A DNA stretch of 64,000 bases. Source: Pseudomonadota bacterium (GTDB lineage: Bacteria > Desulfobacterota > Desulfobulbia > Desulfobulbales > JAGXFP01). Positions 16,589 through 30,429 of the stretch are shown here, one piece after another. Each line of letters starts with the position of its first letter. Position 1 is the stretch's first letter. The stretch covers positions 89,593 through 153,592 of the forward strand of contig JAHJIQ010000013.1 in assembly GCA_018823285.1 (NCBI GenBank). The letters are read 5' to 3'. The position numbers and the translations under genes were made by a program. Below the pieces are notes generated by a model, which was given only the letters and a program-made list of their open reading frames with translations, was not told where the DNA came from and did not search any database.

Positions 16589-18703
16589 GTGCGTCCGGTG
16601 AAGTTGATGGAGAGTCATACCGCTTCGTGTTCAGCAAAAATCATCGGGAATATTGCGTCCTTTTACAGCTCGGTCCGCTCCCGAAAGATTCCCTCATCTT
16701 TTGCCGACGCACGGAAAACCTGCGGCATTATCCAGGGTCTTGCCTCCCTGAAAGAGTCATTAGCGGCGGTAGCGAAATCGCATGAACCCAGCTTCCTGAA
16801 ACTGGGGCAAAACCTCCAGACCATCTACATGAACGCCAACACCCTTGCCGGAAGCACCATCGAGTCGGTCAAGGAAATTTCCGGCGACAACCGGCAAAGC
16901 GCCCTGGCCGGGCTGCGGGACAAAATCCGGATATCCCTGGCCCGAATGGCAGGCGATCAGGCCGCGATCGACAACAACCTGCAGGACCTCGAAACGCAGG
17001 GGCAACATCTCTCAACCCTGACGAACACCAGCCGGGACCTTTACAAAATTGCTTTGTACCTGAAGGTCGCCGGGATCAACATCGGCATTGAAGCAACCCG
17101 CTCCGAAGAGTCGCGGGCCATGTTTTCCCTGACCGCGGAAGAAGTCAGTCAACTCGGGGGCAGGATCATCTCCTTCGCTGAAAATATTGAAGAGGACGCC
17201 TCCCTGGCCCGCAATGTGCAATTGTCGGTTCGGGCGGATATCTCACGGAAACTCGGCAAGTTACGGGAATACGGCGCCGCAGCGGAAACGACCGTCGGGA
17301 ATGCCCTGGCGGTGATTGAGCAACTGCTCCTGAGTACCTCCACAGCCATGGACCAGGCGGCGCTCCACTCCAAATCCATCGCCGCCCATTGCGGCGAAAT
17401 CGTGGTCGGCATCCAGTTCCACGACAGCATGAGCCAACGTCTTGAACACGTCATCGAAACATTTGCTGAAGCAATCACTCTGCTTGCCGATTCCCCTGGT
17501 GAAGACCCTTCGCAGGATCCCCCCCTTCCGCTTGCGGAAAGAATGGCGGCCGCCTACCCCCTCTGCCGGCTCCAGGCCAATCAGATTCAACAGGTGGTTA
17601 CGGAAATCGAATCCCTCCATCAGCAGATATCCCGTTCCTTTGACCTGATCGACCAGATCATCGGGCAGATGGCCGCAGTCCTTTCCGGCCTGTCCGGGGA
17701 CGACCGGGAAGAGCTGTCCGCCCGGCACCCGGGTGACTCATTCGAAAACCTGAAAACCTCCCTCGATGATCTGGTTCTCCTGATGAAACAGGGGGATGAT
17801 CTGATGGAGGATGTCCGCCGGGAGGTCCACGATGCCGCCGAGACCTCCAACCGGCTCCTCTCATTTATGAACAAAGTCAACGCCACGGCGTTTGAAATCA
17901 AGATCCAGGCCCTGAACTCGATCATCAAGGCCGCCCATCTGGGGAACAAAGGGCTGACCCTTGTCGTCCTGGCCCACGAAATTAACACCCTATCCGATAC
18001 CGCAGACACCATTGTTGCAGGGGCGGCGGAAGCGTACCGTCTATTGTCGGACCAGGCGAATAAAAACCTGGTGAACCAGGGAGACGCAGGCCGTGACGAC
18101 ACCTCCCTCAGCACCGCCATCGCAGACATCGAATCCGTCTACGGCCGGTTTAAAACCACCTCGCAATCCGTGGCAGACAAAGCCGAAGCGCTGAGAACCC
18201 TGACCAGGGAAACCAGAACCTCCCTGGATTTCCTGCCGGGCATGGCCGCCCACCTGAATGACTGCCACCGGAAAATGGAAAGCCTCCTCTCCGAGCTGGA
18301 GGAAGAGTGCGGACCTGTCGGCCATGAAACGATCGACGCCGCCATCCGCAATGTTGAGGGCCGCTACACCATGGACCAGGAACGGGTGGTCCATCTGCAG
18401 CTTACGACAGGAATCCCGTCAGAACAATCGCCCATTCAGGCAGATGTCTCCGCCGAACCGGATTCATCGATTGAACTCTTCTCATCCCAGGCGGAAGAGG
18501 ATTCCTCAATCGAACTTTTCGGGACCGACCCCGAAGCAGATTCTTCGGTAGAACTATTCGACGCTCCGCCTGCAGCGGAAAAATGGGAGGAACCACCCAT
18601 CCCCTCGCAGGAAAGCATTGAGCAAAATCGGCCGGCAACGGAATTTTCACAACCGGCCGAAAAGAAGACCGAAGACCTGGGCGATAATGTCGAGCTTTTC
18701 TGA
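16589..18703 (+). CDS. soluble divergent MCP-like chemosensory protein with acidic repeat tail
   Basis: 704-aa ORF with no TM segment. Two segments resemble the MCP hairpin tip (IEATRSEESRAMFSLTAEEVSQL; ALNSIIKAAHLGNKGLTLVVLAHEINTLS). QFHDSMSQRLEHV motif. C-terminal repeats DSS(I/V)ELF x3 plus a terminal DNVELF. It is the first gene of the che operon. The exact start (GTG 16589/16598 or ATG 16607) is uncertain. Confidence 0.75.
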   Translation: MRPVKLMESHTASCSAKIIGNIASFYSSVRSRKIPSSFADARKTCGIIQGLASLKESLAAVAKSHEPSFLKLGQNLQTIYMNANTLAGSTIESVKEISGDNRQSALAGLRDKIRISLARMAGDQAAIDNNLQDLETQGQHLSTLTNTSRDLYKIALYLKVAGINIGIEATRSEESRAMFSLTAEEVSQLGGRIISFAENIEEDASLARNVQLSVRADISRKLGKLREYGAAAETTVGNALAVIEQLLLSTSTAMDQAALHSKSIAAHCGEIVVGIQFHDSMSQRLEHVIETFAEAITLLADSPGEDPSQDPPLPLAERMAAAYPLCRLQANQIQQVVTEIESLHQQISRSFDLIDQIIGQMAAVLSGLSGDDREELSARHPGDSFENLKTSLDDLVLLMKQGDDLMEDVRREVHDAAETSNRLLSFMNKVNATAFEIKIQALNSIIKAAHLGNKGLTLVVLAHEINTLSDTADTIVAGAAEAYRLLSDQANKNLVNQGDAGRDDTSLSTAIADIESVYGRFKTTSQSVADKAEALRTLTRETRTSLDFLPGMAAHLNDCHRKMESLLSELEEECGPVGHETIDAAIRNVEGRYTMDQERVVHLQLTTGIPSEQSPIQADVSAEPDSSIELFSSQAEEDSSIELFGTDPEADSSVELFDAPPAAEKWEEPPIPSQESIEQNRPATEFSQPAEKKTEDLGDNVELF

Positions 18704-18745: not shown

Positions 18746-19093
18746 ATGAAATTGACCATCGAACCGGACGGCAGGCGGGGGACTTTAGTTCTGCGCGGAG
18801 CCCAGACAATCGGGCAGGCGCACGCTTTAAAAGAGAGCCTCCTCGACGCCTTCCAGAAGGTGGAAGAGCTTGAAATCGACATGGACGCCATTACTGAAGC
18901 AGACCTCTCCCTCCTGCAGCTTCTCTGCGCCGCGCACCGGACCTCCCAGGAACTCCGGAAAAAGCTTTTCATAAAAAGGCGCTGGCCGGAAGTCCTGGAA
19001 AAAACGGCCGGATCCGCCGGCTTTTTTCAGCACCGGCGCTGCCAGTTCAATCTGGAAAACGATTGCCTCTGGCGGAAGGAGGGAGGCGAATGA
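18746..19093 (+). CDS. STAS-domain protein (anti-sigma-factor-antagonist-like)
   Basis: 115 aa. LVLRGAQTIGQAHALKESLLDAF....ELEIDMDAITEADLSLLQLLCAA fits the STAS/SpoIIAA fold pattern. GGAGGA RBS. Its stop overlaps the cheY start (ATGA). Confidence 0.75.
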   Translation: MKLTIEPDGRRGTLVLRGAQTIGQAHALKESLLDAFQKVEELEIDMDAITEADLSLLQLLCAAHRTSQELRKKLFIKRRWPEVLEKTAGSAGFFQHRRCQFNLENDCLWRKEGGE

Positions 19094-19458
19094 GCAAAAC
19101 CATCATGACCGTCGATGATTCGGCAAGTGTCCGGCAAATGGTCAACTTTACCCTGAGCGGGGCCGGATACGGCGTTATCGAGGCGGAACACGGCAAGGAC
19201 GCCCTCGCCAAGCTGAAAGCGGCCACGGTCAATATGATCATCACCGACCTGAACATGCCGGAAATGGACGGTATTGAACTGGTCCGCGCCGTCAGAAACG
19301 ATCCCGCCCTGAAATTCATGCCCATCGTGCTCCTGACCACAGAATCCCAGGACACCAAGAAGCAGGAAGGCAAGCAGGCCGGCGCGACCGGCTGGATCGT
19401 CAAGCCGTTCAAACCCGAGCAACTCCTCGGGGTTGTCAAAAAAATTATCGGCAGCTGA
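19090..19458 (+). CDS. cheY: chemotaxis response regulator CheY
   Basis: MSKTIMTVDDSASVRQMV...MIITDLNMPEMDGIELV...TTES...GWIVKPF is the single-domain REC with a CheY-like signature. Confidence 0.9.
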   Translation: MSKTIMTVDDSASVRQMVNFTLSGAGYGVIEAEHGKDALAKLKAATVNMIITDLNMPEMDGIELVRAVRNDPALKFMPIVLLTTESQDTKKQEGKQAGATGWIVKPFKPEQLLGVVKKIIGS

Positions 19459-19485: not shown

Positions 19486-21615
19486 ATGGATCCACATCAA
19501 ACCGCATACCTGGAAGAAGCCAAAGAACTTCTTGTTGAACTGGAAACCTCGTTGCTGGAGCTCGAGGACACCCCCGATGATCAGGAGCTGATCGGGAGGG
19601 TCTTCCGGGCGCTGCACACCATTAAAGGGTCCGGCGCGATGTTCGGCTTCGACCGGATCGCCGAGTTCACCCATCAGGTGGAAACCGCCTTCGACCTGGT
19701 CCGGTCCGGGAAAATCCCGGTCACCTCCGAGATGATCAACCTCACTTTACGGGCCCGGGACGAGATCAAGGCCATGCTTGAAGAGGCGGAAACCGGCGAG
19801 ACAACGGACCCCGGTTCCGCCGAGGAGATCATCAATGCCTTCATCGCCCTGACCACCGGCGCAGCACCTCCCGCACCGGAGCCCCCGCCCCAGCTTCCTC
19901 CGGCCGAAAACGTCCGGCCCGGGATCATTGCTCCGGATCGGCCGGAGATCAAAGGAAGATTGACCACCTTCAGGATTCTGTTCAAGCCCCGGCGGGAAAT
20001 TCTCCAGACCGGCACCAATCCCATCCTCCTGCTCGATGAGCTGAATGCCCTCGGCGAATGCACGATCATCGTCAATAATGAAAAGATCCCCTCACTCCAC
20101 ACCATCGATACCGAGCAGTGCTATGTGAGCTGGGAAATCCTGCTGACCACCGACCAGGGAATCAACAGCGTCAGGGATGTCTTCATCTTTGTCGAAGACC
20201 TGAGCGAAATCGTGATCGAGGTGCTCGAGGAAGATCTCGATTCCCTGGATGACAGCCAGCAGAAGAGACTCGGCGAAATCCTGATTGAACGCCGTGAAAT
20301 TTCAGCTGAAGCGCTGACCGCCTGCCTCGACAAGCAAAAAAGGATCGGCGAGGTCCTGATCGGCGAGAAACTGATCAGCAACCAGGCCGTTGCCAATGCC
20401 CTGGCCCAGCAGCAGCATTCTTCCAGAGTGCTGAAAAAACAGAAAGAGCTTGCCGAAACTTCAACGATCCGGGTGGAGGCCAATCGTCTGGACAAGCTGG
20501 TCAATCTGGTCGGGGAACTGGTCACCCTGCAGGCCCGCCTGGGCCAGAAGGCCTTCCGGGAAAATGATCCCGACCTCATCTCAATCTCCGAGGAGGCCGA
20601 CCGCCTGACTTCGGCATTACGGAACAATGCGATGAGTATCCGGATGCTGCCCATCGGCAAGACCTTCAGCAAGTTCCGCCGGCTGGTCCGGGACCTCTCG
20701 AAAAACCTCGGCAAGGAGATCATCCTTACCACCGAGGGCGAGGAGACCGAACTGGACAAAACCGTCATCGACAAATTGAATGACCCCCTGGTCCATCTGA
20801 TCCGGAACTGTATCGATCACGGCATCGAACTGCCGGAGGAAAGGATGCATGCGGGCAAAGCAGGCCAGGGGACCATCCATTTAAAGGCTTTCCATTCCGG
20901 GGCCAATGTCTTTCTGCAGATCACCGATGACGGCAAAGGCCTCGACTGCAAGGCGATTCATGCCAAGGGGGTCGAAAAGGGCATCATCCAGGCGGATACC
21001 GTCCTGGCCGAGAAAGAACTCTTCGCCCTCATCTTCGCGCCTGGATTTTCCACCGCCAAAACCGTCTCGGATGTCTCCGGCCGCGGCGTCGGCATGGATG
21101 TGGTGAAAAAGAACATTGACGCCCTCCGCGGCACTATCGAAATCGAAAGCCGGCAGGGCTCCGGGACCACGGTCACCCTCAAACTGCCCCTGACCCTCGC
21201 GATCATCGACGGGCTTCTGGTGCAGATCGGGAAGGGCTTTTTCGTCATCCCGCTCTCCGCAGTCGAGGAATGCCTGGAGGTCACAAGAACGGAGGCAAAC
21301 CAGGCCCTGGAAAGGAGCATGCTCTCCTCCCGGGGGGAAATCCTCTCCTATATCAGCCTGCGCCGGCTGTTTTCCTGTCACGACACCCCTCCGCCCCTGG
21401 AAAAGATCGTGGTGATCGAGGAAAACGGCCACCGGATCGGCCTCGGCCTCGACAGCGTCATCGGCCAGCACCAGACCGTGATCAAGGGGTTGAGCAAGGT
21501 GTATCAGAATGTGAAGGGCCTTTCGGGGGCAACCATCCTCGGCGACGGCACCATGGCCCTGATCCTCGATATCCCGCAACTGGCCCAATGCGTGAAATCA
21601 GAACCGCCATTGTGA
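19486..21615 (+). CDS. cheA: chemotaxis histidine kinase CheA
   Basis: Hpt domain (FRALHTIKGSGAMFGF). Dimerisation/HATPase blocks (HLIRNCIDHGIE; DDGKGLD; GRGVGMDVV; GSGTTVTLKLPLTLAI). C-terminal CheW-like domain. It also contains tandem T2SSE_N/MshEN-like motifs at 20266..20412. Confidence 0.95.
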   Translation: MDPHQTAYLEEAKELLVELETSLLELEDTPDDQELIGRVFRALHTIKGSGAMFGFDRIAEFTHQVETAFDLVRSGKIPVTSEMINLTLRARDEIKAMLEEAETGETTDPGSAEEIINAFIALTTGAAPPAPEPPPQLPPAENVRPGIIAPDRPEIKGRLTTFRILFKPRREILQTGTNPILLLDELNALGECTIIVNNEKIPSLHTIDTEQCYVSWEILLTTDQGINSVRDVFIFVEDLSEIVIEVLEEDLDSLDDSQQKRLGEILIERREISAEALTACLDKQKRIGEVLIGEKLISNQAVANALAQQQHSSRVLKKQKELAETSTIRVEANRLDKLVNLVGELVTLQARLGQKAFRENDPDLISISEEADRLTSALRNNAMSIRMLPIGKTFSKFRRLVRDLSKNLGKEIILTTEGEETELDKTVIDKLNDPLVHLIRNCIDHGIELPEERMHAGKAGQGTIHLKAFHSGANVFLQITDDGKGLDCKAIHAKGVEKGIIQADTVLAEKELFALIFAPGFSTAKTVSDVSGRGVGMDVVKKNIDALRGTIEIESRQGSGTTVTLKLPLTLAIIDGLLVQIGKGFFVIPLSAVEECLEVTRTEANQALERSMLSSRGEILSYISLRRLFSCHDTPPPLEKIVVIEENGHRIGLGLDSVIGQHQTVIKGLSKVYQNVKGLSGATILGDGTMALILDIPQLAQCVKSEPPL

Positions 21616-21690
21616 AATAAAGGAACAGAGAGAGAGTCCACCAACAATATTAATGACAACATCCAACAACCACATCCGGGAGTATTGAGC

Positions 21691-23763
21691 ATGAAGATCA
21701 ACGACATTAAAGTCAGCGTAAAACTCATCGGCGCCTTTCTCATTGTCGCACTCATCGTTGCCATCGTCGGGGTGACCGGCCTGATCACCTGCAACAATGT
21801 CGGCAAAGCGACCGACATCATCCTTGATGAACAGGTCCCCCTGGCGGATGCGACCATGGAGAGCTCCATCGCCCTGATCAGCACCCGGGACCTGATGGGG
21901 GAATTCCTCCTCAATGACAGCAAGGAGACTCTCGATCAGGCCGCCATGGAGTTTGAGAACAATATCAAAAAGCTGCAGGACCAGCTTGCCTTCCTGAAAA
22001 ACAACGGCAACGACGCAATCAAGGAGGCCGTCTCCCAGGCCGAATCGCAGGTGAATCAGTACATCACCGCCGGTCACTCCCTGATGGCCGAACACCGGGA
22101 GAAACTTGCGAAAACCATGGACCGCCAGGCGGCCATGGAGAAACTGGACGCGGAAATCGACTCGATCAAGGAATCCCTTGCAAAATACGAGGAAACCTTG
22201 ACCAGAAACAAGGCAATTGACGAAAAAGTCGATGCGGCCATGGAATCAAAAACCATTATTGTCGAACAGCAGGCCATTGTCGAAGAGTTCATGAGCATCA
22301 GGACCCTTGAAGAATCGTCAGCGCTGCAGCTGTCCTTCAAGGATATGGAAAAACAATTCGACAAGCTGGAGCATCTCCTGCCCAAAGAAACCACCAGGGA
22401 ACACGCCGCATTTTCAGAGAATGCCCACAAAATTTTCAAACTTGGCGCAGAAATCGTGCAGCTGAATACGAACACCAGAACCCAGATGGCCCAGGTAGAC
22501 GAGTTGAGCGGCAAGAGCATCGACCTTGCCGGCAAAATGGAGGAGATTGCCGGCAAAAACATGCAGCTGGCCATGGAATCCGCCGACAGTTCGCAGGGCA
22601 AAGGGCGCTGGATCATCGGGATCATGACCTTCTTGAGTTTTGCCATTGCCTTTCTCCTTGGTTTTTCCCTCTCCCGGCATATTTCCGTGCCCCTGCTGGA
22701 AGCGGTGGATGTCTCGGGGAAACTCAGCAGGGGAGACTTGAGCGTTGAGATTGAAATCAACAGAAAAGACGAAATCGGTCAACTGCTCACCGCCATGAAA
22801 AACATGGTCGCCAAGCTGCGGATGGTGGTCGGCGATGTCTTAAGCGCTTCGAGCAATGTCTCTTCCGGCAGCCAGCAGATGAGTTCGAGCGCCGAAGAGA
22901 TGTCCCAGGGCGCCACGGAACAGGCGGCCGCCGCCGAAGAGGCATCGTCCTCCATGGAAGAGATGGCCTCGAACATCAGCCAGAATGCCGACAACGCCCT
23001 CCAGACCGGCAAGATCGCCGGCAAATCAGCCGAAGACGCCCTCGAAGGCGGCAAAGCGGTGACCGAGACGGTAGCCGCCATGAAGCAGATTGCCGAAAAG
23101 ATCTCGATCATCGAGGAGATTGCCCGCCAGACCGACCTGCTGGCCCTGAACGCCGCCATCGAAGCCGCCCGGGCCGGCGAACACGGCAAGGGCTTTGCGG
23201 TTGTCGCCTCGGAGGTCAGGAAACTTGCGGAACGGAGCCAGACCGCGGCGGGCGAGATCAGCAAGCTCTCCTCCTCCAGCGTCGAAATCGCCGAACATGC
23301 CGGCACCCTGCTCACTTCCCTGGTGCCGAATATCCAGAAAACCTCCGAGCTGGTCCAGGAAATCAGCGCCGCCAGCAATGAGCAGAACACCGGGGCCGAC
23401 CAGATCAACAAGGCAATCCAGCAGCTCGACCAGGTCATCCAGCAGAACGCCGCCGTCGCCGAAGAGATGTCCTCCACTTCCGAGGAGCTGGCCAGCCAGG
23501 CGGAAATGCTGCTTGAGACCGTCGGCTTCTTTAAACTCGACGACCAGGGTTCCGGCCAGATCCGCGGCGAGAGAAGCTATCATCATCAGCATCACACCCC
23601 GCCGAAAAAGACGGCAAAAAGGCAACAGATCGCCCATGTCCCCCATAAAGAAAGCCATGAAGATCCGGCTCAGGGACAGAGTGGAGCAAAAGGTTTTGAA
23701 TTCAACCTCGGCCATGAAGGACCTGCCGGAGACCAGATGGACAATGATTTTGAAAAATATTGA
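21691..23763 (+). CDS. methyl-accepting chemotaxis protein (two TM segments, large helical periplasmic domain, HAMP)
   Basis: Canonical tip [39 protein letters not shown]1 ([21 protein letters not shown]), TM2 ([20 protein letters not shown]) and HAMP. Long unstructured tail ending DFEKY. ATG at 21691 preferred over the TTG at 21685. Confidence 0.95.
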
Positions 23764-23848: not shown

Positions 23849-24355
23849 ATGAGTGAATCATCTTTGTATCTCACCTTCCGCCTGGAAGATGAACTTTTTG
23901 CCGTGGATGTTTCCCAGGTCCGCGAGGTGCTTGATGTTGCCGCCATCACCAAAATCCCCCGCGCCCTTGATTTTATGCGGGGCATCATCAATATCAGGGG
24001 CACCGTGGTGCCGGTCATCGATCTGCGGACCAAATTCGGCATGACCGAAACCAGACAGACCCTCGATTCGCGGATCGTGGTCATGGAAATCGATCTCGAC
24101 GGCGAGACAACCCTGATCGGGGCGATGGCGGACTCGGTCCATGAAGTCCTCGAACTGGACCGTGACCAGATTGAACCCCCGCCCAGACTCGGCTCGCGCT
24201 GGCGCATTGAATTCATCAAGGGTGTCGGGACCCGGGATGAGGAATTCATCCTGATCCTCGATATCGACCGGGTGTTCTCCGCCGAAGAACTGACCAGGAT
24301 TTCCGCCGTCGACACCAGCGCCCAGGCGGCGCCGGTGGACGATGAAAAAGAGTGA
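23849..24355 (+). CDS. cheW: chemotaxis coupling protein CheW
   Basis: 168 aa. YLTFRLEDELFAVDVSQVREVL......IP....F..G.INIRG.VVPVIDLR is the CheW pattern. Confidence 0.9.
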   Translation: MSESSLYLTFRLEDELFAVDVSQVREVLDVAAITKIPRALDFMRGIINIRGTVVPVIDLRTKFGMTETRQTLDSRIVVMEIDLDGETTLIGAMADSVHEVLELDRDQIEPPPRLGSRWRIEFIKGVGTRDEEFILILDIDRVFSAEELTRISAVDTSAQAAPVDDEKE

Positions 24356-24450
24356 TTGGGACGGGGGTGATCGGTTTGCCGGCGTCATCCAATCCATCCC
24401 CGGCGCTTTCCCAAAAAAGCGAATATGCCGCCGTATCCGCCCCGGAGGCC

Positions 24451-25281
24451 ATGAATGACCGCCTGTTTGCCCGCTTTCAGGCGGTCATCATGGACAAGCT
24501 GGGCATCAAGATCACCAGTGCCAAAAAAACCATGCTCCAGTCCCGCCTGTCGAAGCGGTTACGGTTACGGGGGCTTAAATCCTACGAGGAATATTTTGAT
24601 CTCCTCTTCAAGTCCCCGGCAGGCAGGGATGAAATCCAGGCATTCATAGACGTTATCACCACCAACAAGACCGATTTTTTCCGGGAGCCGCACCATTTCG
24701 ACTATCTCGCCCGCAATGCCTTTCCGCAGATCGTCGGCGGCGGGCGGAGTCTCGACCTGCACCGGGGGATCAATCTCTGGAGTGCCGGTTGTTCCTCGGG
24801 AGAAGAGCCATACACCATAGCCATGGTCGCCAACGAGTTTTTCCGCCTGCGCCAAAATCTCCGCTATACCATCTATGCCAGCGACATCTGCTCCACCGTT
24901 CTCCGGAAGGCCAGAACTGCGGTTTATCCACACCACACCGCAGCACCCATCCCGGTTGACCTGAAAAAAAAATACCTGCTGCGCAGCAAGGACCGCAACA
25001 ATGACCAGGTCAGAATCATTCCGGAACTCCGGGCGAAAATCCGGTTTCTGCAGCTCAACTTCATGGACGACGAGTACCGTCTGCCGACCAAGGTCCAGGT
25101 GATTTTCTGCCGCAATGTCATGATCTATTTCGATCAAGAGACCCAGAAAAAGGTCCTGGCCAGGATGTGCCGCGAGCTTCTGCCGGGCGGCTATCTTTTT
25201 GTCGGGCATTCCGAAACCCTTACCGGCCTCGGGCTGCCTCTGGTTTCCGTCGGCCCTACCATCTACAGGAAGATCACATGA
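24451..25281 (+). CDS. cheR: chemotaxis protein methyltransferase CheR
   Basis: TTNKTDFFREPHHF, NLWSAGCSSGEEPYTIAM, IFCRNVMIYFD. Start chosen at the ATG at 24451 (GGAGG upstream) within the 24352..25281 ORF. Confidence 0.9.
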   Translation: MNDRLFARFQAVIMDKLGIKITSAKKTMLQSRLSKRLRLRGLKSYEEYFDLLFKSPAGRDEIQAFIDVITTNKTDFFREPHHFDYLARNAFPQIVGGGRSLDLHRGINLWSAGCSSGEEPYTIAMVANEFFRLRQNLRYTIYASDICSTVLRKARTAVYPHHTAAPIPVDLKKKYLLRSKDRNNDQVRIIPELRAKIRFLQLNFMDDEYRLPTKVQVIFCRNVMIYFDQETQKKVLARMCRELLPGGYLFVGHSETLTGLGLPLVSVGPTIYRKIT

Positions 25282-25883
25282 GCCCGCGCAATTCTTGTGT
25301 GTCGCAGATCTATCTCAAACCGGCGATGATTTTCTTCGATGCCTCGCCGGCCTGCGTTTCCACGGTGCTCGGCTCCTGTGTGACCCTCACCATGCTCGTT
25401 CGCCGGCTCGAGCTGGCCTCGGTCTGCCACGCCCAGCTCCCTTACTGCAAAACGCCGGGGTCTTGCGCCACCACCTGCAGCGAAAAATATAAATTTGTCG
25501 ATTGTGCGATTACCCGCATGTTGGAAAGCTTTACCGGTTGCGGCGCCGCTCTTTCGGAAATAGAAATCAAGATCTTCGGCGGCGCCGACGGCATCAGGGG
25601 GGACACTCCCGGCGGGCAGTCGATCCGGATCGGCAAAATGAATATCGAAGCAGCCATCCGGACCCTGCGGCAACGGGAGCTGAAACCGGTCAGCGGAGAT
25701 GTCGGCGGGTCAAGAGGACGGAAGATTTACTTCCTCACTCCCACGGGTGACGTCTGGTCTAAAAAACTCTCGGCGGGGGAGCCCTGTCCCAGATACCCGG
25801 AAAATGTCGGCCATCAAAATATCACCCTGGGCGGATTCACCATCTGCCCGGCCACGCAGCAGCAGGATTTCAATTTTTTATAA
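25278..25883 (+). CDS. cheD: chemoreceptor glutamine deamidase CheD
   Basis: VSTVLGSCVTLTM....ASVCHAQLP, then EIKIFGGA and GGSRGRKIYF blocks. ATG at 25278 overlaps the cheR stop. At about 200 aa it is longer than typical CheD. Confidence 0.8.
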   Translation: MSPRNSCVSQIYLKPAMIFFDASPACVSTVLGSCVTLTMLVRRLELASVCHAQLPYCKTPGSCATTCSEKYKFVDCAITRMLESFTGCGAALSEIEIKIFGGADGIRGDTPGGQSIRIGKMNIEAAIRTLRQRELKPVSGDVGGSRGRKIYFLTPTGDVWSKKLSAGEPCPRYPENVGHQNITLGGFTICPATQQQDFNFL

Positions 25884-26978
<1,095 letters not shown>

Positions 26979-27113: not shown

Positions 27114-28184
27114 TTAGTTCGCCCTGATTTGCGGGGCCAGGCTCGCCATCTTGATCTGCATCAGCGTGGGATTACAATCCGGTGCAACCAGGGCAACCAG
27201 CAGGAACTCCCCTTTGCTTCCGGCGCTGCGTGTGGCCAGGGTGCCATCGGTCGACTCCAGGACAATGGAGTCGCATTTTTCCAGTCCGTTTTCGGTTGTT
27301 GTCTGTGACGCCAGCCTGAACAGGTCGGCAATAACCGTCCCGCCGCTGTTGAGGTCGATCGAATTCCCGTTTTTCTCCTCCGCCAGCAACACCCCATTCC
27401 TGTGCAGGATTGCTGCCCCGATATATCCCGCCACTTTTGCCAGCGCCCTGAATATCCCGGCCTGCGGCAATTCCTTTTCTTCCGGCTGGGTCACGGCCCG
27501 GCTTGCGGTTTCATCTTTTCTGCGGCTTGCCTCGAGCAAGAGCCCGACATAGCTCTTTTCAATGCTCAGGACCGGGGGCCTGACATTCCTCCTGCTTTCG
27601 ATATTGCCGCCCCCAAAGGCCATAATCCGGTAAAAAGCCTCCTCTCCTTCAATATCACCGGCAATGGCGTGGACAATATTGCCGCTGTCGAAAAATATCA
27701 TCCCCGATTTTTTTCCGTCACGGATCTTGAGCGCTACAGTATTGCACGACAGGCAATTGAGCTGAATCATGTCTGAGAGCTCAATACCGGCCATGGTACC
27801 GGTAAAGCCTTTCTGTTCGGTCAGAGCCTCGATCACGCTACCACGTAAGAGCTCGATATCATAAGGTTTTTCAATAAAACGAAGACATCCGCCGAGGAGC
27901 GCGTCGCGTTTTATTTCAGCAGTCGGGAAGGCGGTCATTACAATAAAAGCAAGGTCCGGGACTATCGCCGATGCCGCCAGAATCAGTTCCATGCCATTCA
28001 TTCCCGGCATATGAACATCGGTGATCAGGAGACTGATACCTTCCTTTTCAATGATCGACAGCGCCTCTTCGCCGGAGGAGGCGGTGATGATTTCGGCATT
28101 GATCTCTTTACAGTCAAGGCTTAAGGCGAGAATTTTAAGCTCCTCGATCTCGTCGTCTACCAGTAATATTTTTTTCATAGGCAT
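27114..28184 (-). CDS. response regulator with REC, PATAN (DUF4388) and Roadblock/LC7-like domains
   Basis: REC domain (KKILLVDDEIEELK...LLITDVHMPGMNGMELI). DUF4388-like block (GIELSDMIQLNCLSCNTVALKIRDGKKSGMIFFDSGNIVHAIAGDIEGEEAFYRIM). C-terminus resembles Roadblock/MglB (VAGYIGAAILHRNGVLLAEE...). Start ambiguous (28178, 28184 or 28187). Confidence 0.8.
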   Translation of the reverse strand: MPMKKILLVDDEIEELKILALSLDCKEINAEIITASSGEEALSIIEKEGISLLITDVHMPGMNGMELILAASAIVPDLAFIVMTAFPTAEIKRDALLGGCLRFIEKPYDIELLRGSVIEALTEQKGFTGTMAGIELSDMIQLNCLSCNTVALKIRDGKKSGMIFFDSGNIVHAIAGDIEGEEAFYRIMAFGGGNIESRRNVRPPVLSIEKSYVGLLLEASRRKDETASRAVTQPEEKELPQAGIFRALAKVAGYIGAAILHRNGVLLAEEKNGNSIDLNSGGTVIADLFRLASQTTTENGLEKCDSIVLESTDGTLATRSAGSKGEFLLVALVAPDCNPTLMQIKMASLAPQIRAN

Positions 28185-28417
28185 CACCCGATATGTGCAT
28201 GCAACAGCAGATAAAACTTTATGTAATCAGACAAACATTTCCGACCCGACAGGGATTTCAACAGCCTCCCAGAGGACTCCCGGGGGAAGATCAGCCCATA
28301 CCCGGAAAGACTTTTGCCGAACATTTTCCTGATTATAAAAGGATATTACGCACTCCACAGAAGTGTCAAGAATTGAATTCCCGAAAAGACTCTTTTGACC
28401 TGTTTGAACCCATGCCT

Positions 28418-28533: not shown

Positions 28534-30429
28534 ATGCCACTTAAAATCAATGACCCTTCTTCTCTCTTTGGCTTGAACCGCCTGAACCAGACTCACAAAA
28601 CCCTTTCCAGTTCGCTCGAGAAACTTGCCACCGGCAGCCGCATCAACCGGGCTGCGGATGACGCCTCGGGCATGGCCATTGCCGATGCCCTGGAAAGCCA
28701 GCGAAAGGGATACGTCCAGGCAATCCGCAACGCAACCGATGCGATCTCCATCACCCAGACCGCAGACGGCGCGATCGGCGAAATGACCAGTATTCTCCAG
28801 GAGATCCGGACCAAGGCGATCCAGGCCGCTTCCGACAGCCAGTCCCGAGACTCACGCCAGGCCCTGCAGGCGGATATCAACCGATACCTTGAAGGGCTGG
28901 ACAATATCGCCAGGACCACATCCTACAACGGCCAGAAACTTCTGACCGGCCAGTTCGCAGGGAAATCGTTTCAGGTAGGCGCGGTTTCCGGGGAGACCGT
29001 GCAGATCAGTATCGGAGATATCAGTCTTGGAAAACTCGGCGGAGGATCCGATTCCGGCGATGGAGAACAGGTCTCGCGCACCTATCTTGCCTCGCCCCTG
29101 ACCCTGCAGAATCCCCTGACGACCAGCGCCGAGTCAAGCCTTGAACCGGGTTCAACGTTAACAGCGCGGACGGAACTCGCCGCCGGGTCCTCCCTCGGGT
29201 TCGCTCTGGACAGCGTCAATCTGGGCGCCGATATTTCGACAACCGGCGAATCAGCTCTCGCAGCCGGTTCTACCCTTGGGGCGGGGAGTGTTATCGCAGG
29301 CGGCACAGAGCTCGGCGGCACAGTCACGCTTGCCGCCGACACGACCACAAGCGGGGTGAACACCATTGCCACCGGCTCGACTCTTGCCACCGGGACCATT
29401 CTTGCCGCCGGGACCGTCTTGAGCACCGACATAACCAGTGGCGGCACAACGTATTCCTCCGGGCAGCCCCTTGCCGCAGAGGTCACCCTGACCCAGGACG
29501 CAGCGATAACCGCACCATTGCACCTCGGCCCGGGATCATCCGTCGCCGCCGGCAGCTCCCTGGCCGGAGGTTCCGCCATATCCGGCAATATCACCCTGGC
29601 CGCCACCGCAACCATGACCGGCCCGGCAGTTTTGAAAAGCGGTTCAATCATCGCGGATGCTGCGGGAACAAACATTCTGTCCGGCTCAAGCATCGGAGGC
29701 CGGCTGACTCTTGCCGCCAACACCTCCGTTATCGGGAAGATGACCGTTGCCGCAGGCTCAGAGATCGAGGCGGGGAGCCTCCTTGGGTCAGGATCATCCG
29801 TGGGTGGTCCGGTCGTCACAGGGACCCCGTTCACCCTTGACAACACGATGCACATCGGTGCGGGGTCTCTGCTGGAATCAGGATCGGTACTCAAGGCGGG
29901 AACAGTTCTGGGAAGCGGGGTCAGCGTGGCCGGAGGGCAATCTCCGGGAGCCGGGACCGTCCTGACCGGCGATGTCGTCACCGAGGGCCGGAATTACCTC
30001 GATTCGGGAACGATCCTCGCAAAAGGCTCGACCCTGGCATCCGGCTCAACCATTGCCCCGCAGACATCACCTGTTACTACTGCCGGAGACAGCAGGCCCT
30101 CAGGATTCAGCCGGCTTGCGGAAATCGATGTGACTTCCATGGAAGGCGCCCAGGCGGCCATCGGCGCAGTTGACGAAGCGCTGTCCCAGCTGAACCGGAC
30201 CAGATCGGGCCTCGGCTCCACCCAGAATCAGCTGGTCTCCTCCATCACCAACCTGTCGGTCACCATGGCCAACACCGCAGCCGCCGGATCGACCATTGCC
30301 GATCTGGACTTCGCCGAGGAATCGACCCTGCTCAACAACTTCCAGATCCTGCTGAAAGCGCAGGTGTTCGCCCAGGCTCAGACCAACCGGATCAGAGGCA
30401 GCAATGTCATGAGTTTATTGCAGGGATAA
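28534..30429 (+). CDS. fliC: flagellin with expanded hexapeptide-repeat central domain
   Basis: N-terminal D0/D1 (LEKLATGSRINRAADDASGMAIADAL; ISITQTADGAIGE...ILQEIR). C-terminal D1/D0 (LGSTQNQLVSSITNLS....IADLDFAEEST.L...QIL.QA...AQAQ). Strong RBS GGAGGA. The central ~330 aa is G/S/T/A/L-rich with 6-residue periodicity. Confidence 0.85.
   Translation: MPLKINDPSSLFGLNRLNQTHKTLSSSLEKLATGSRINRAADDASGMAIADALESQRKGYVQAIRNATDAISITQTADGAIGEMTSILQEIRTKAIQAASDSQSRDSRQALQADINRYLEGLDNIARTTSYNGQKLLTGQFAGKSFQVGAVSGETVQISIGDISLGKLGGGSDSGDGEQVSRTYLASPLTLQNPLTTSAESSLEPGSTLTARTELAAGSSLGFALDSVNLGADISTTGESALAAGSTLGAGSVIAGGTELGGTVTLAADTTTSGVNTIATGSTLATGTILAAGTVLSTDITSGGTTYSSGQPLAAEVTLTQDAAITAPLHLGPGSSVAAGSSLAGGSAISGNITLAATATMTGPAVLKSGSIIADAAGTNILSGSSIGGRLTLAANTSVIGKMTVAAGSEIEAGSLLGSGSSVGGPVVTGTPFTLDNTMHIGAGSLLESGSVLKAGTVLGSGVSVAGGQSPGAGTVLTGDVVTEGRNYLDSGTILAKGSTLASGSTIAPQTSPVTTAGDSRPSGFSRLAEIDVTSMEGAQAAIGAVDEALSQLNRTRSGLGSTQNQLVSSITNLSVTMANTAAAGSTIADLDFAEESTLLNNFQILLKAQVFAQAQTNRIRGSNVMSLLQG

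Follow-up and report, generated by a model that had tools for sequence, protein, structure and literature searches.

Repeated C-terminal xELF peptides on a soluble McpA-like protein with a CheZ-like helix: candidate tethers for a CheY4-type regulator

Introduction

The stretch of DNA analysed here, a 64,000-nucleotide (nt) window of contig JAHJIQ010000013.1 from a member of the Desulfobulbales, raises the question of what is bound by several copies of one short peptide on the tail of a single receptor-like protein. The protein concerned, encoded by the first gene of a chemotaxis operon (hereafter gene X), resembles the methyl-accepting chemotaxis proteins (MCPs) and carries three DSS(I/V)ELF motifs and a terminal DNVELF on its tail. 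A first-pass annotation of this DNA had likened these motifs to the C-terminal pentapeptides by which receptors tether CheR and CheB and, more loosely, to the peptide at CheZ's C-terminus that binds CheY. Because X carries the CheZ catalytic signature, the evidence described below argues for a CheY tether rather than a tether of methylation enzymes, and we give about an even chance to the reading, drawn by analogy with CheZ, that the X peptides tether the neighbouring CheY to a CheZ-like site.

Comparable ends are found on the McpA-like receptors, which adjoin F7 chemotaxis clusters and are exemplified by PA0180 (McpA/CttP) of Pseudomonas aeruginosa, VCA1088 of Vibrio cholerae and SO_2117 of Shewanella oneidensis (Ortega et al., 2020, PMC7184735). 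Their C-termini are highly conserved (EVELF, EIELF, DIELF and TVELF; pattern [DET][IVL][ED]L[FY], from Suppl. Table 12), fail the pentapeptide pattern x-[HFWY]-xx-[HFWY], and have a role that was called 'important yet unclear' (PMC7184735). We found no function for this motif in the later literature, and literature on EVELF/DNVELF strings, CheZ-like chemoreceptors or DXXXQ with CheY gave no earlier account of a link between the tail and CheZ. The terminal motif is therefore already known but functionally unexplained, and the soluble two-hairpin family represented by X, its recurrent multivalency and its CheZ-like link appear to be undescribed so far.

Results

The repeated motif and its coding DNA

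The elements of gene X that the analysis turns on are listed below in window coordinates, with the basis of each in brackets.

16607..18703, + strand: gene X, a 698-amino-acid (aa) soluble MCP-like protein (longest open reading frame, ORF, from GTG 16589; NCBI start ATG 16607; P0001 100% identical)
17048..17176, + strand: first signalling-tip-like hairpin, aa 148-190, GINIGIEATRSEESRAMFSLTAEEV (AlphaFold2 turn at aa 164-169; hhalign)
17402..17449, + strand: CheZ-like helix VVGIQFHDSMSQRLEH, aa 266-281, with D273 and Q277 (invariance; Pfam register)
17888..18004, + strand: second signalling-tip-like segment, aa 428-466, ALNSIIKAAHLGNKGLTLVVLAHEI (Pfam MCPsignal; hhalign)
18362..18394, + strand: RYTMDQERVVH motif, aa 586-596, at the end of the helical body (alignment A2)
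18410..18700, + strand: disordered acidic tail, aa 602-698 (AlphaFold2; composition)
18461..18481, + strand: internal motif copy 1, DSSIELF (sequence and translation)
18500..18520, + strand: internal motif copy 2, DSSIELF (sequence and translation)
18539..18559, + strand: internal motif copy 3, DSSVELF (sequence and translation)
18677..18700, + strand: terminal motif LGDNVELF, the family hallmark [LFMY]-[GD]-[DE]-N-[VI]-[ED]-L-F at the C-terminus (alignment A2)
Tail peptides proposed as CheY ligands (candidates): EKKTEDLGDNVELF; PDSSIELFSSQ

All four motif copies share the frame of the ORF 16589/16607..18703. The internal copies, which start at 18461, 18500 and 18539, are written GAT TCN TCN ATY/GTA GAA CTN TTC, and the terminal DNVELF (18683-18700) reads GAT AAT GTC GAG CTT TTC TGA, with the stop codon at 18701-18703. 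The positions, sequences and exact 39-nt period given in the first-pass annotation were thus accurate in every detail, and its term 'tandem 39-bp repeats' is apt as to the period; it does not describe the DNA itself, since Tandem Repeats Finder detected no tandem repeat at the motif region, the spacings are 39, 39 and 141 nt, and nucleotide identity among the four copies is limited to an 11-nt core (TCGAACTTTTC). The 21-nt motif-coding parts differ between copies at 4-5 positions with 0-1 amino-acid change (one I/V), while the 18-nt spacers between them differ at 10 of 18 positions. Because the motif codons differ mostly synonymously while the spacers have diverged, the codon pattern indicates that the peptide motif is kept by selection and is not the product of recent DNA duplication.

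The tail bears 25 Asp and Glu residues against 4 Lys and Arg, plus 11 Pro, and was modelled by AlphaFold2 at a predicted local distance difference test score (pLDDT) of 30-45, in agreement with its earlier description as disordered and acidic; among relatives its length ranges from 25 to 175 aa. The last four residues of X are helical in the model, and in the octapeptide at its end, positions -7, -3, -1 and 0 are hydrophobic, a spacing that fits one face of a short helix.

Conservation and copy number in the X family

A first protein search retrieved 16 relatives at 23-42% identity, nearly all ending [LFYM]GDNV[ED]LF, and a genome scan found at least 408 X loci, mainly in Desulfobacterota, with others in Verrucomicrobiota, Lentisphaerota, Planctomycetota, Nitrospirota, Acidobacteriota and Synergistota. 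Exhaustive searching with a profile yielded 2,249 cluster representatives at E<=1e-30. Two sets were used for counting, namely 62 non-redundant genome relatives of X and the best 150 of the 2,249 profile matches, the latter selected without any motif pattern. The terminal motif (an N[VI][ED]LF end) was present in 61/62 of the former and in about 145/150 of the latter, and in the 62 relatives the density of [IVL][EDSV]L[FWY] was 30.2 per 1000 aa in tails versus 0.084 in bodies, an enrichment of about 360-fold.

Among the 62 relatives, one motif copy was found in 35 proteins, two in 8, three in 9, four in 3, five in 5 and eight in 1; at least two copies were present in 40/138 of the best representatives, so that members with internal copies make up 29-43% across both sets. 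The internal variants differ by lineage: X itself has DSS[IV]ELF, Geobacteraceae have xDLW and xELW, and Desulfomicrobium-type proteins have DDNVELF at an 8-residue period, encoded by a 24-nt tandem DNA repeat with 81-88% matches, the copy spacing in the family ranging from 8 to 13 residues. Since the lineages use different internal variants, these sequences indicate that multivalency is recurrent and independently evolved, not a one-off. The first-pass annotation had spoken of an unusual multivalent device and had proposed comparing copy number in related genomes and constraint on ELF in orthologues. The comparison bore out both multivalency, at 1 to 8 copies per protein, and constraint; the device proved less unusual than supposed, being shared by the fraction of members given above and having a terminal motif already described for McpA-like receptors.

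These counts also bear on the possibility that the tail has no dedicated ligand, acting instead as an acidic entropic spacer or as a C-terminal degradation or localisation tag whose internal copies are by-products of duplication. The 24-nt repeats of the Desulfomicrobium-type relatives do point to duplication-prone DNA. However, the window copies retain the peptide despite divergence of their synonymous sites and spacers, the motif is strongly enriched in tails, independent lineages hold the variants xDLW, xIELF and DNVELF with the same core, and internal copies would be unable to serve as C-terminal tags. We regard this possibility as very remote, the least probable of those considered here.

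Two groups of relatives deserve separate mention. In a Synergistia metagenome-assembled genome (L064, 12000-12115) the 3' end of an X homologue enters an N stretch (masked or a scaffold gap) after two DNVELFG copies, and in L065 this gene is truncated where the contig ends. A distant clade (L001-L003, from GCA_002328035.1 and two Logan assemblies) has an X of 597-598 aa ending YGDNVDLF, in the order response regulator-X-STAS-CheY-CheA-short CheR (202 aa, without the N-terminal domain)-metallo-beta-lactamase. Upstream of these genes are two hybrid kinases and one gene for cytochrome P460; CheB, CheD and CheW were not seen there.

Architecture of X and kinship with McpA-like receptors

No transmembrane (TM) segment was found in X, the highest 19-aa Kyte-Doolittle window being 1.13 versus 2.84 in the neighbouring MCP. 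The AlphaFold2 model was all-helical with a mean pLDDT of 73, and in its Foldseek comparison with the PDB the matches were confined to MCP cytoplasmic domains (2CH7, 3G67 and 3ZX6; probability 0.9-1.0) and long coiled coils of a generic kind, giving no discrimination of CheZ. In Pfam, X gave a single MCPsignal match (aa 400-486, E 1.5e-7), which is weak and below threshold.

The McpA-like genes used for comparison were taken from plasmid-filed records. A VCA1088 orthologue on a 1.85-Mb record of Vibrio sp. THAF191d ends EEGEVELF and lies in a cluster cheY4-cheA-cheW-cheW-aer2-cheR-cheD-cheB-mcpA, and plasmids of Pseudomonas sp. HR96 and Aeromonas sp. BC14 carry MCP genes directly 5' of cheY-STAS-cheA whose products end DITFF and DVTFF. 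Whereas the McpA-like group was originally defined as the orthologous group containing PA0180 at E<=1e-30, membership was judged here by profile alignment and C-terminus. With hhalign, X 84-280 aligned with the single hairpin of the Vibrio VCA1088-type protein (probability 96.7%, E 4.2e-10), tip on tip and QFHD on QFTD, and X 324-598 aligned with the hairpin of the HR96 protein (probability 97.6%, E 3.5e-12), RYTMxxERxIH on TYATSEQRANH. Because the Vibrio protein aligns on hairpin 1 and the Pseudomonas protein on hairpin 2, profile alignment identifies X as a relative of the McpA-like receptors that is soluble and has two hairpins, and the motif at its C-terminus is the one they carry.

In addition to homologous sequence and an end (NVELF) with a non-aromatic position 2, the two groups share a QFxDxxxQ helix about 115 aa past the tip and a cluster of the type cheY-cheA-...-cheR-cheD-cheB with STAS and a CheY4-type CheY. 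They differ in that McpA-like receptors have a predicted TM region and a single signalling hairpin, whereas X has no TM region and two tip-like segments, hairpin 1 keeping QFHDxxxQ and hairpin 2 keeping RYTMxxERxIH and the tail. X occurs mainly in Desulfobacterota, Verrucomicrobiota, Planctomycetota and others, McpA-like receptors in Gammaproteobacteria; X often has several motif copies, unlike the McpA-like receptors, whose literature makes no mention of a CheZ-like signature. The window cluster, which may be of class F7 or F8, resembles an F7 cluster in gene set, order and CheY4-type CheY, its second receptor being a TM 4HB-HAMP MCP and not the PAS-HAMP Aer2. X also recalls DosM (V. cholerae VC1403, F9), by description of the latter only, in being soluble, with two signalling-tip-like segments and without a sensor domain; assignment to F9 was rejected, as the definition of F9 calls for a triple-CheW protein alongside DosM (PMC9321776) and the operon CheW is a 168-aa, single-domain protein.

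Three sets of residues are invariant in alignment A2: the C-terminal G, N, V, L and F; QFHD...Q...H at aa 270-281; and YTM..E...H at aa 587-596. H272, E280, H281, E592 and H596, plus E60 and F63, are invariant or nearly so. From the distances to both tips, the invariant His and Glu residues are expected at one common level of the bundle, and they may serve a second function, for instance the binding of a metal or ligand.

Some features of the comparison loci are recorded here in their own right. Just 3' of the McpA-like gene of Vibrio sp. THAF191d (L087, 24458-26152) lies a gene for a response regulator joined to a PP2C/SpoIIE-like phosphatase and an anti-sigma-kinase-like part (domains assigned by eye), a protein that looks CrsR-like and fits the partner-switch module of Shewanella che1. 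Plasmids of the alphaproteobacteria Methylosinus (L090) and Sphingomonas (L091) carry STAS-CheY4-like-CheA clusters with no X or McpA-like gene in the 18 kb retrieved. The MCPs of these clusters have another conserved motif near the C-terminus, ending GEDxxDAEFRRG or EDVEFGHAA.

A CheZ-like helix in the receptor body

CheZ is characterised by the signature AxxFQ-DxxxQ and by a layout in which a DxxxQ-bearing bundle is followed by a 30-residue linker and a C-terminal amphipathic helix that binds CheY (PMC7750401). In E. coli CheZ the corresponding stretch is AQDFQDLTGQ, with D143 and Q147 catalytic. In X, Q270, D273 and Q277 were invariant in 150/150 representatives, position -5 of the helix was G, A or S in 139/150, and position -2 was F, I, L or V. 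When 46 central segments of the X family were scanned singly against all of Pfam, the CheZ family (PF04344) was the top-ranked, matched, at sub-threshold scores, by 24/46 segments as compared with 6 for the next family; in every listed match the register was constant (profile position = segment position + 75), placing DxxxQ on the active-site positions. As a control, 42 segments of canonical MCPs taken from the equivalent place in the same loci all matched MCPsignal, with CheZ missing from the 25 families that they matched most often.

Direct alignment by hhalign with CheZ of E. coli or with aligned enterobacterial CheZ sequences placed QFHDxxxQ on DFQDLTGQ in the right register, weakly (P 0.006-0.1); the search for CheZ homologues had yielded only relatives at 71% identity or above, so that the CheZ profile was not sharpened. 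When hydropathy was averaged by column from -24 to +28 relative to the Asp, it correlated with that of CheZ at register 0 (r=0.53), other shifts within +/-7 giving 0.23 or less, and the Asp and Gln are accordingly predicted to lie on the polar face as in CheZ. The same helix extends to the membrane-bound relatives: A-L-Q-F-x-D-x-x-x-Q was found together with a V/I-type tail in 3/3 gammaproteobacterial McpA-like receptors examined, and 120/120 Vibrio VCA1088-type representatives, V. cholerae included, had ALQFxDxxxQ exactly 115 aa past the tip Asn and ended GE[VI]E[LFM]F.

Two other explanations of these invariant residues were rejected. A buried His/Glu metal or ligand site does not suit D273 and Q277, both of which the register puts on the polar face, and an HisKA_3-type H-box (HDxxxQ) with H272 as phospho-acceptor is at odds with the replacement of H272 by Q, Y, D or R in 12/150 representatives and with the absence of any HisKA_3 match.

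Taken as a whole, X shares with CheZ a helical bundle bearing A/G/S-x-x-F-x-D-x-x-x-Q, a flexible linker and an acidic amphipathic C-peptide ending in Phe; it differs in its MCP-like body with tips, in the C-peptide itself (GDNVELF versus DDLLDSLGF) and in peptide number (up to eight in the X family versus one in CheZ). Of the two analogies drawn in the first-pass annotation, the one it considered looser is therefore the better, on account of the invariant DxxxQ helix, although no homology between the peptides was detectable.

Two classes of receptor tail

The coupling between tail type and helix was counted over all MCP-tip ORFs in the fetched loci, as follows.

DxxxQ helix present, V/I-type tail: 23 ORFs
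DxxxQ helix present, other C-terminus: 1 ORF (a regular-expression artefact)
DxxxQ helix absent, V/I-type tail: 3 ORFs (truncated proteins or regular-expression misses)
DxxxQ helix absent, aromatic pentapeptide [DE]FE[KR][YF]: 54 ORFs
DxxxQ helix absent, neither tail type: 29 ORFs

Two receptor tail classes hence coexist in these clusters, and the aliphatic class always travels with the DxxxQ helix; the sister MCPs with neither the helix nor a V/I tail number 83, and 54/83 bear the aromatic pentapeptide instead.

This partition bears directly on the reading that the X peptides are variant CheR/CheB-tethering pentapeptides, by which the adaptation enzymes would be brought to a scaffold resembling a receptor. 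As in NWETF and GWEEF, the X motif stands at the extreme C-terminus past a flexible linker and ends in an aromatic residue, and both cheR and cheB are present in the window operon. However, NVELF, SIELF and SVELF have V or I at position 2, where the pentapeptides are aromatic, and do not fit x-[HFWY]-x(2)-[HFWY]; Val at this position of P. aeruginosa McpA (EVELF) is reported to prevent binding to all four CheRs of that species (PMC7184735, citing Garcia-Fontana 2014). In the 40 loci that extend 8 kb or more to either side of X, moreover, CheR and CheB were encoded within 9 kb of X in only 28/40 and 27/40, respectively, and the distant clade L001-L003 has a short CheR and no CheB nearby. The pentapeptide and the X motif are mutually exclusive on the receptors of these clusters: sister MCPs mostly bear proper aromatic pentapeptides, and the operon's canonical MCP (21685-23763) ends DFEKY, as had been pointed out in the first-pass annotation. 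The CheR/CheB reading is thus largely refuted and appears improbable. The more general idea of docking-type peptides in several copies holds, in view of the near-invariant end and the recurrent internal copies.

Operon and neighbouring genes

Downstream of X, the operon runs in the order STAS, CheY, CheA, TM MCP (DFEKY), CheW, CheR, CheD and CheB, the domain assignments below resting on Pfam.

18746..19093, + strand: STAS-domain protein, 115 aa (STAS_2, E 3.8e-9)
19090..19458, + strand: CheY, 122 aa from ATG 19090, CheY4 type (Response_reg, E 6e-27)
19486..21615, + strand: CheA (Hpt, dimerisation, ATPase and CheW-like domains)
21685..23763, + strand: canonical TM MCP (4HB-HAMP-MCPsignal), DFEKY at 23746-23760
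23849-24355, + strand: cheW
24352-25281, + strand: cheR
within 25167-25883, + strand: cheD
25896-26978, + strand: cheB

The Pfam scan revealed no CheZ, CheC or CheX gene in the operon. In the 40 loci introduced above, the most constant neighbours of X were a CheY4-type CheY and CheA, tied at 39/40, followed by the STAS protein and an MCP (36/40 each), CheW (30/40) and, after CheR and CheB, CheD (19/40), the usual gene order being X-(STAS)-CheY-CheA. CheY is 67-88% identical between loci, compared with 18-42% for X and its relatives. The solved structure nearest to the operon CheY is that of V. cholerae CheY4 (4HNR/4H60, E 4.4e-36), a protein belonging to the F7 cluster whose McpA-like receptor VCA1088 ends EVELF.

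Given this gene order, the peptides might instead bind the STAS protein encoded immediately 3', recruiting it to or releasing it from the receptor as a partner-switch step. X and STAS adjoin in most loci and lie within 9 kb of each other in 36/40; nevertheless, the motif is kept without a nearby STAS gene in L013, L075, L083, L047 and L078, and the strict coupling of the tail with DxxxQ would be left unaccounted for. Recognition of short C-terminal peptides is not a known property of STAS domains. The Shewanella STAS protein CrsA, furthermore, already has a defined partner in CrsR (PMC9855816). A STAS ligand is in our view unlikely, though it is the strongest competitor of CheY.

Docking on CheA (at a P2-like region, aa ~160-250, or at P5) or on CheW, by which X would be anchored or cross-linked in the kinase array, is slightly less probable still. 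CheA is as constant a neighbour as CheY, X has MCP-like tips, and the operon CheA has no canonical P2 domain by Pfam. On the other hand, no C-terminal acidic-hydrophobic peptide is known to bind CheA or CheW, array contact would already be provided by the tips alone, and the coupling with DxxxQ is again not accounted for. E. coli CheZ does bind CheA-short, through its hairpin region and not its C-peptide.

The surroundings of these genes showed further features. Residues 261-309 of the operon CheA (about nt 20266-20412, + strand), between the P1/P2-like region and P3, contain an MshEN-type cyclic di-GMP-binding motif RLGEILIERREISAEALTACLDKQKRIGEVLIGEKLISNQAVANAL (NCBIfam NF053729, E 6.5e-10, 38.7 bits versus a cut-off of 38), which suggests that this CheA is regulated by cyclic di-GMP. 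Directly past cheB and convergent with it (27114-28187, - strand) is a gene for a Response_reg, DUF4388 and Roadblock/LC7 protein that may serve the system as an output or a partner. A 631-aa flagellin is encoded at 28534-30429 (+ strand), its variable middle carrying an unusual insert that matches hexapeptide/left-handed beta-helix repeats (Hexapep E 2e-11). Upstream of the operon lie unrelated biosynthetic genes.

Discussion

Among the candidates weighed above, CheY is the likeliest ligand of the X peptides, an evenly balanced proposition in itself, followed by the STAS protein, CheA or CheW, CheR or CheB, and the absence of any specific ligand. This ranking derives from the constancy of CheY as a neighbour, its likeness to CheY4, the precedent of CheZ and the helix-like octapeptide. 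In the known CheY-CheZ peptide structures, the C-peptide of CheZ, which ends in Phe, binds the alpha4-beta5-alpha5 face of CheY. V. cholerae CheY4 does not bind FliM, its alpha4-beta5-alpha5 face being sterically and electrostatically different (PMC3774744), and this face is thereby left free for another ligand.

The mechanism that we propose is modelled on the layout of CheZ. We infer that the MCP-like tips place X in or beside the CheA/CheW array, and that the exposed [G/A/S]-x-Q-F-H-D-x-x-x-Q helix, midway along the bundle, acts as a putative site for dephosphorylation of phosphorylated CheY (CheY~P). The terminal xVELF peptide would dock the CheY4-type regulator encoded two genes 3' and hold it beside the DxxxQ site for this reaction. 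The three internal DSS[IV]ELF copies would serve as extra docking sites that raise the capture rate and the local CheY concentration, probably by avidity or rebinding and not necessarily by simultaneous occupancy, because copies 8-13 residues apart are too close for 14-kDa CheY molecules to be bound all at once.

Several observations weigh against this proposal. The residue before the Asp is His in 138/150 representatives, not Gln as in CheZ; the best Pfam CheZ match (E 6.3e-6, 26.6 bits) remains below the gathering score of 30.7; and the segment of the window X and those of two McpA-like proteins gave no individual CheZ match. Adding the tails to the central segments did not raise the CheZ score, and the tail peptide is thus to be seen as analogous to, and not detectably homologous with, the C-peptide of CheZ. 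Canonical MCPs have a D-x-x-x-Q of their own, in LDQVTQQNA, at an estimated ~94 residues past the tip Asn versus 115 in X, and the X motif may conceivably have descended from that stretch. In the AlphaFold2 model, aa 378-489 form one unbroken helix, with a break at aa 490-497 (a variable insertion) and not at the MCP-tip-like GNKG, so that the geometry of the second tip, where no turn is modelled, is uncertain. Finally, STAS and CheA are nearly as constant neighbours as CheY, and McpA-like genes in F7 clusters also adjoin a STAS gene (PMC7184735).

The proposal of a CheY tether can be extended, more tentatively and at a likelihood falling short of even, to the whole clade of receptors ending x[VI]ELF, which by analogy would be receptor-embedded CheZ-type phosphatases: the receptor hairpin would bear the DxxxQ catalytic helix, and one to eight C-terminal peptides would tether the CheY4-type regulator. 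This clade takes in the X family, with its at least 2,249 cluster representatives, as well as the McpA-like receptors of P. aeruginosa, V. cholerae and Shewanella.

The F7 systems of these three have no defined output, and the role of the McpA-like receptor and its C-terminus has been left open (PMC7184735, PMC7534058). This tail motif is now connected with an invariant CheZ-like DxxxQ helix borne by the same proteins, and with a CheY4-type regulator that is co-inherited. If the present reading is true, it would account for the conserved McpA C-terminus, for the absence of cheZ, cheC and cheX in the clusters and for the failure of CheY4 to bind FliM, and receptor conformation in the array would directly govern how fast CheY~P turns over in F7/F8-type 'alternative function' systems. 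It would also mean that a phosphatase for response regulators can be built in a new way, within a receptor that has substrate tethers in varying number, and the family would offer a natural series (1 to 8 copies at 8 to 13 residue spacing) in which to study how tether valency tunes signalling kinetics.

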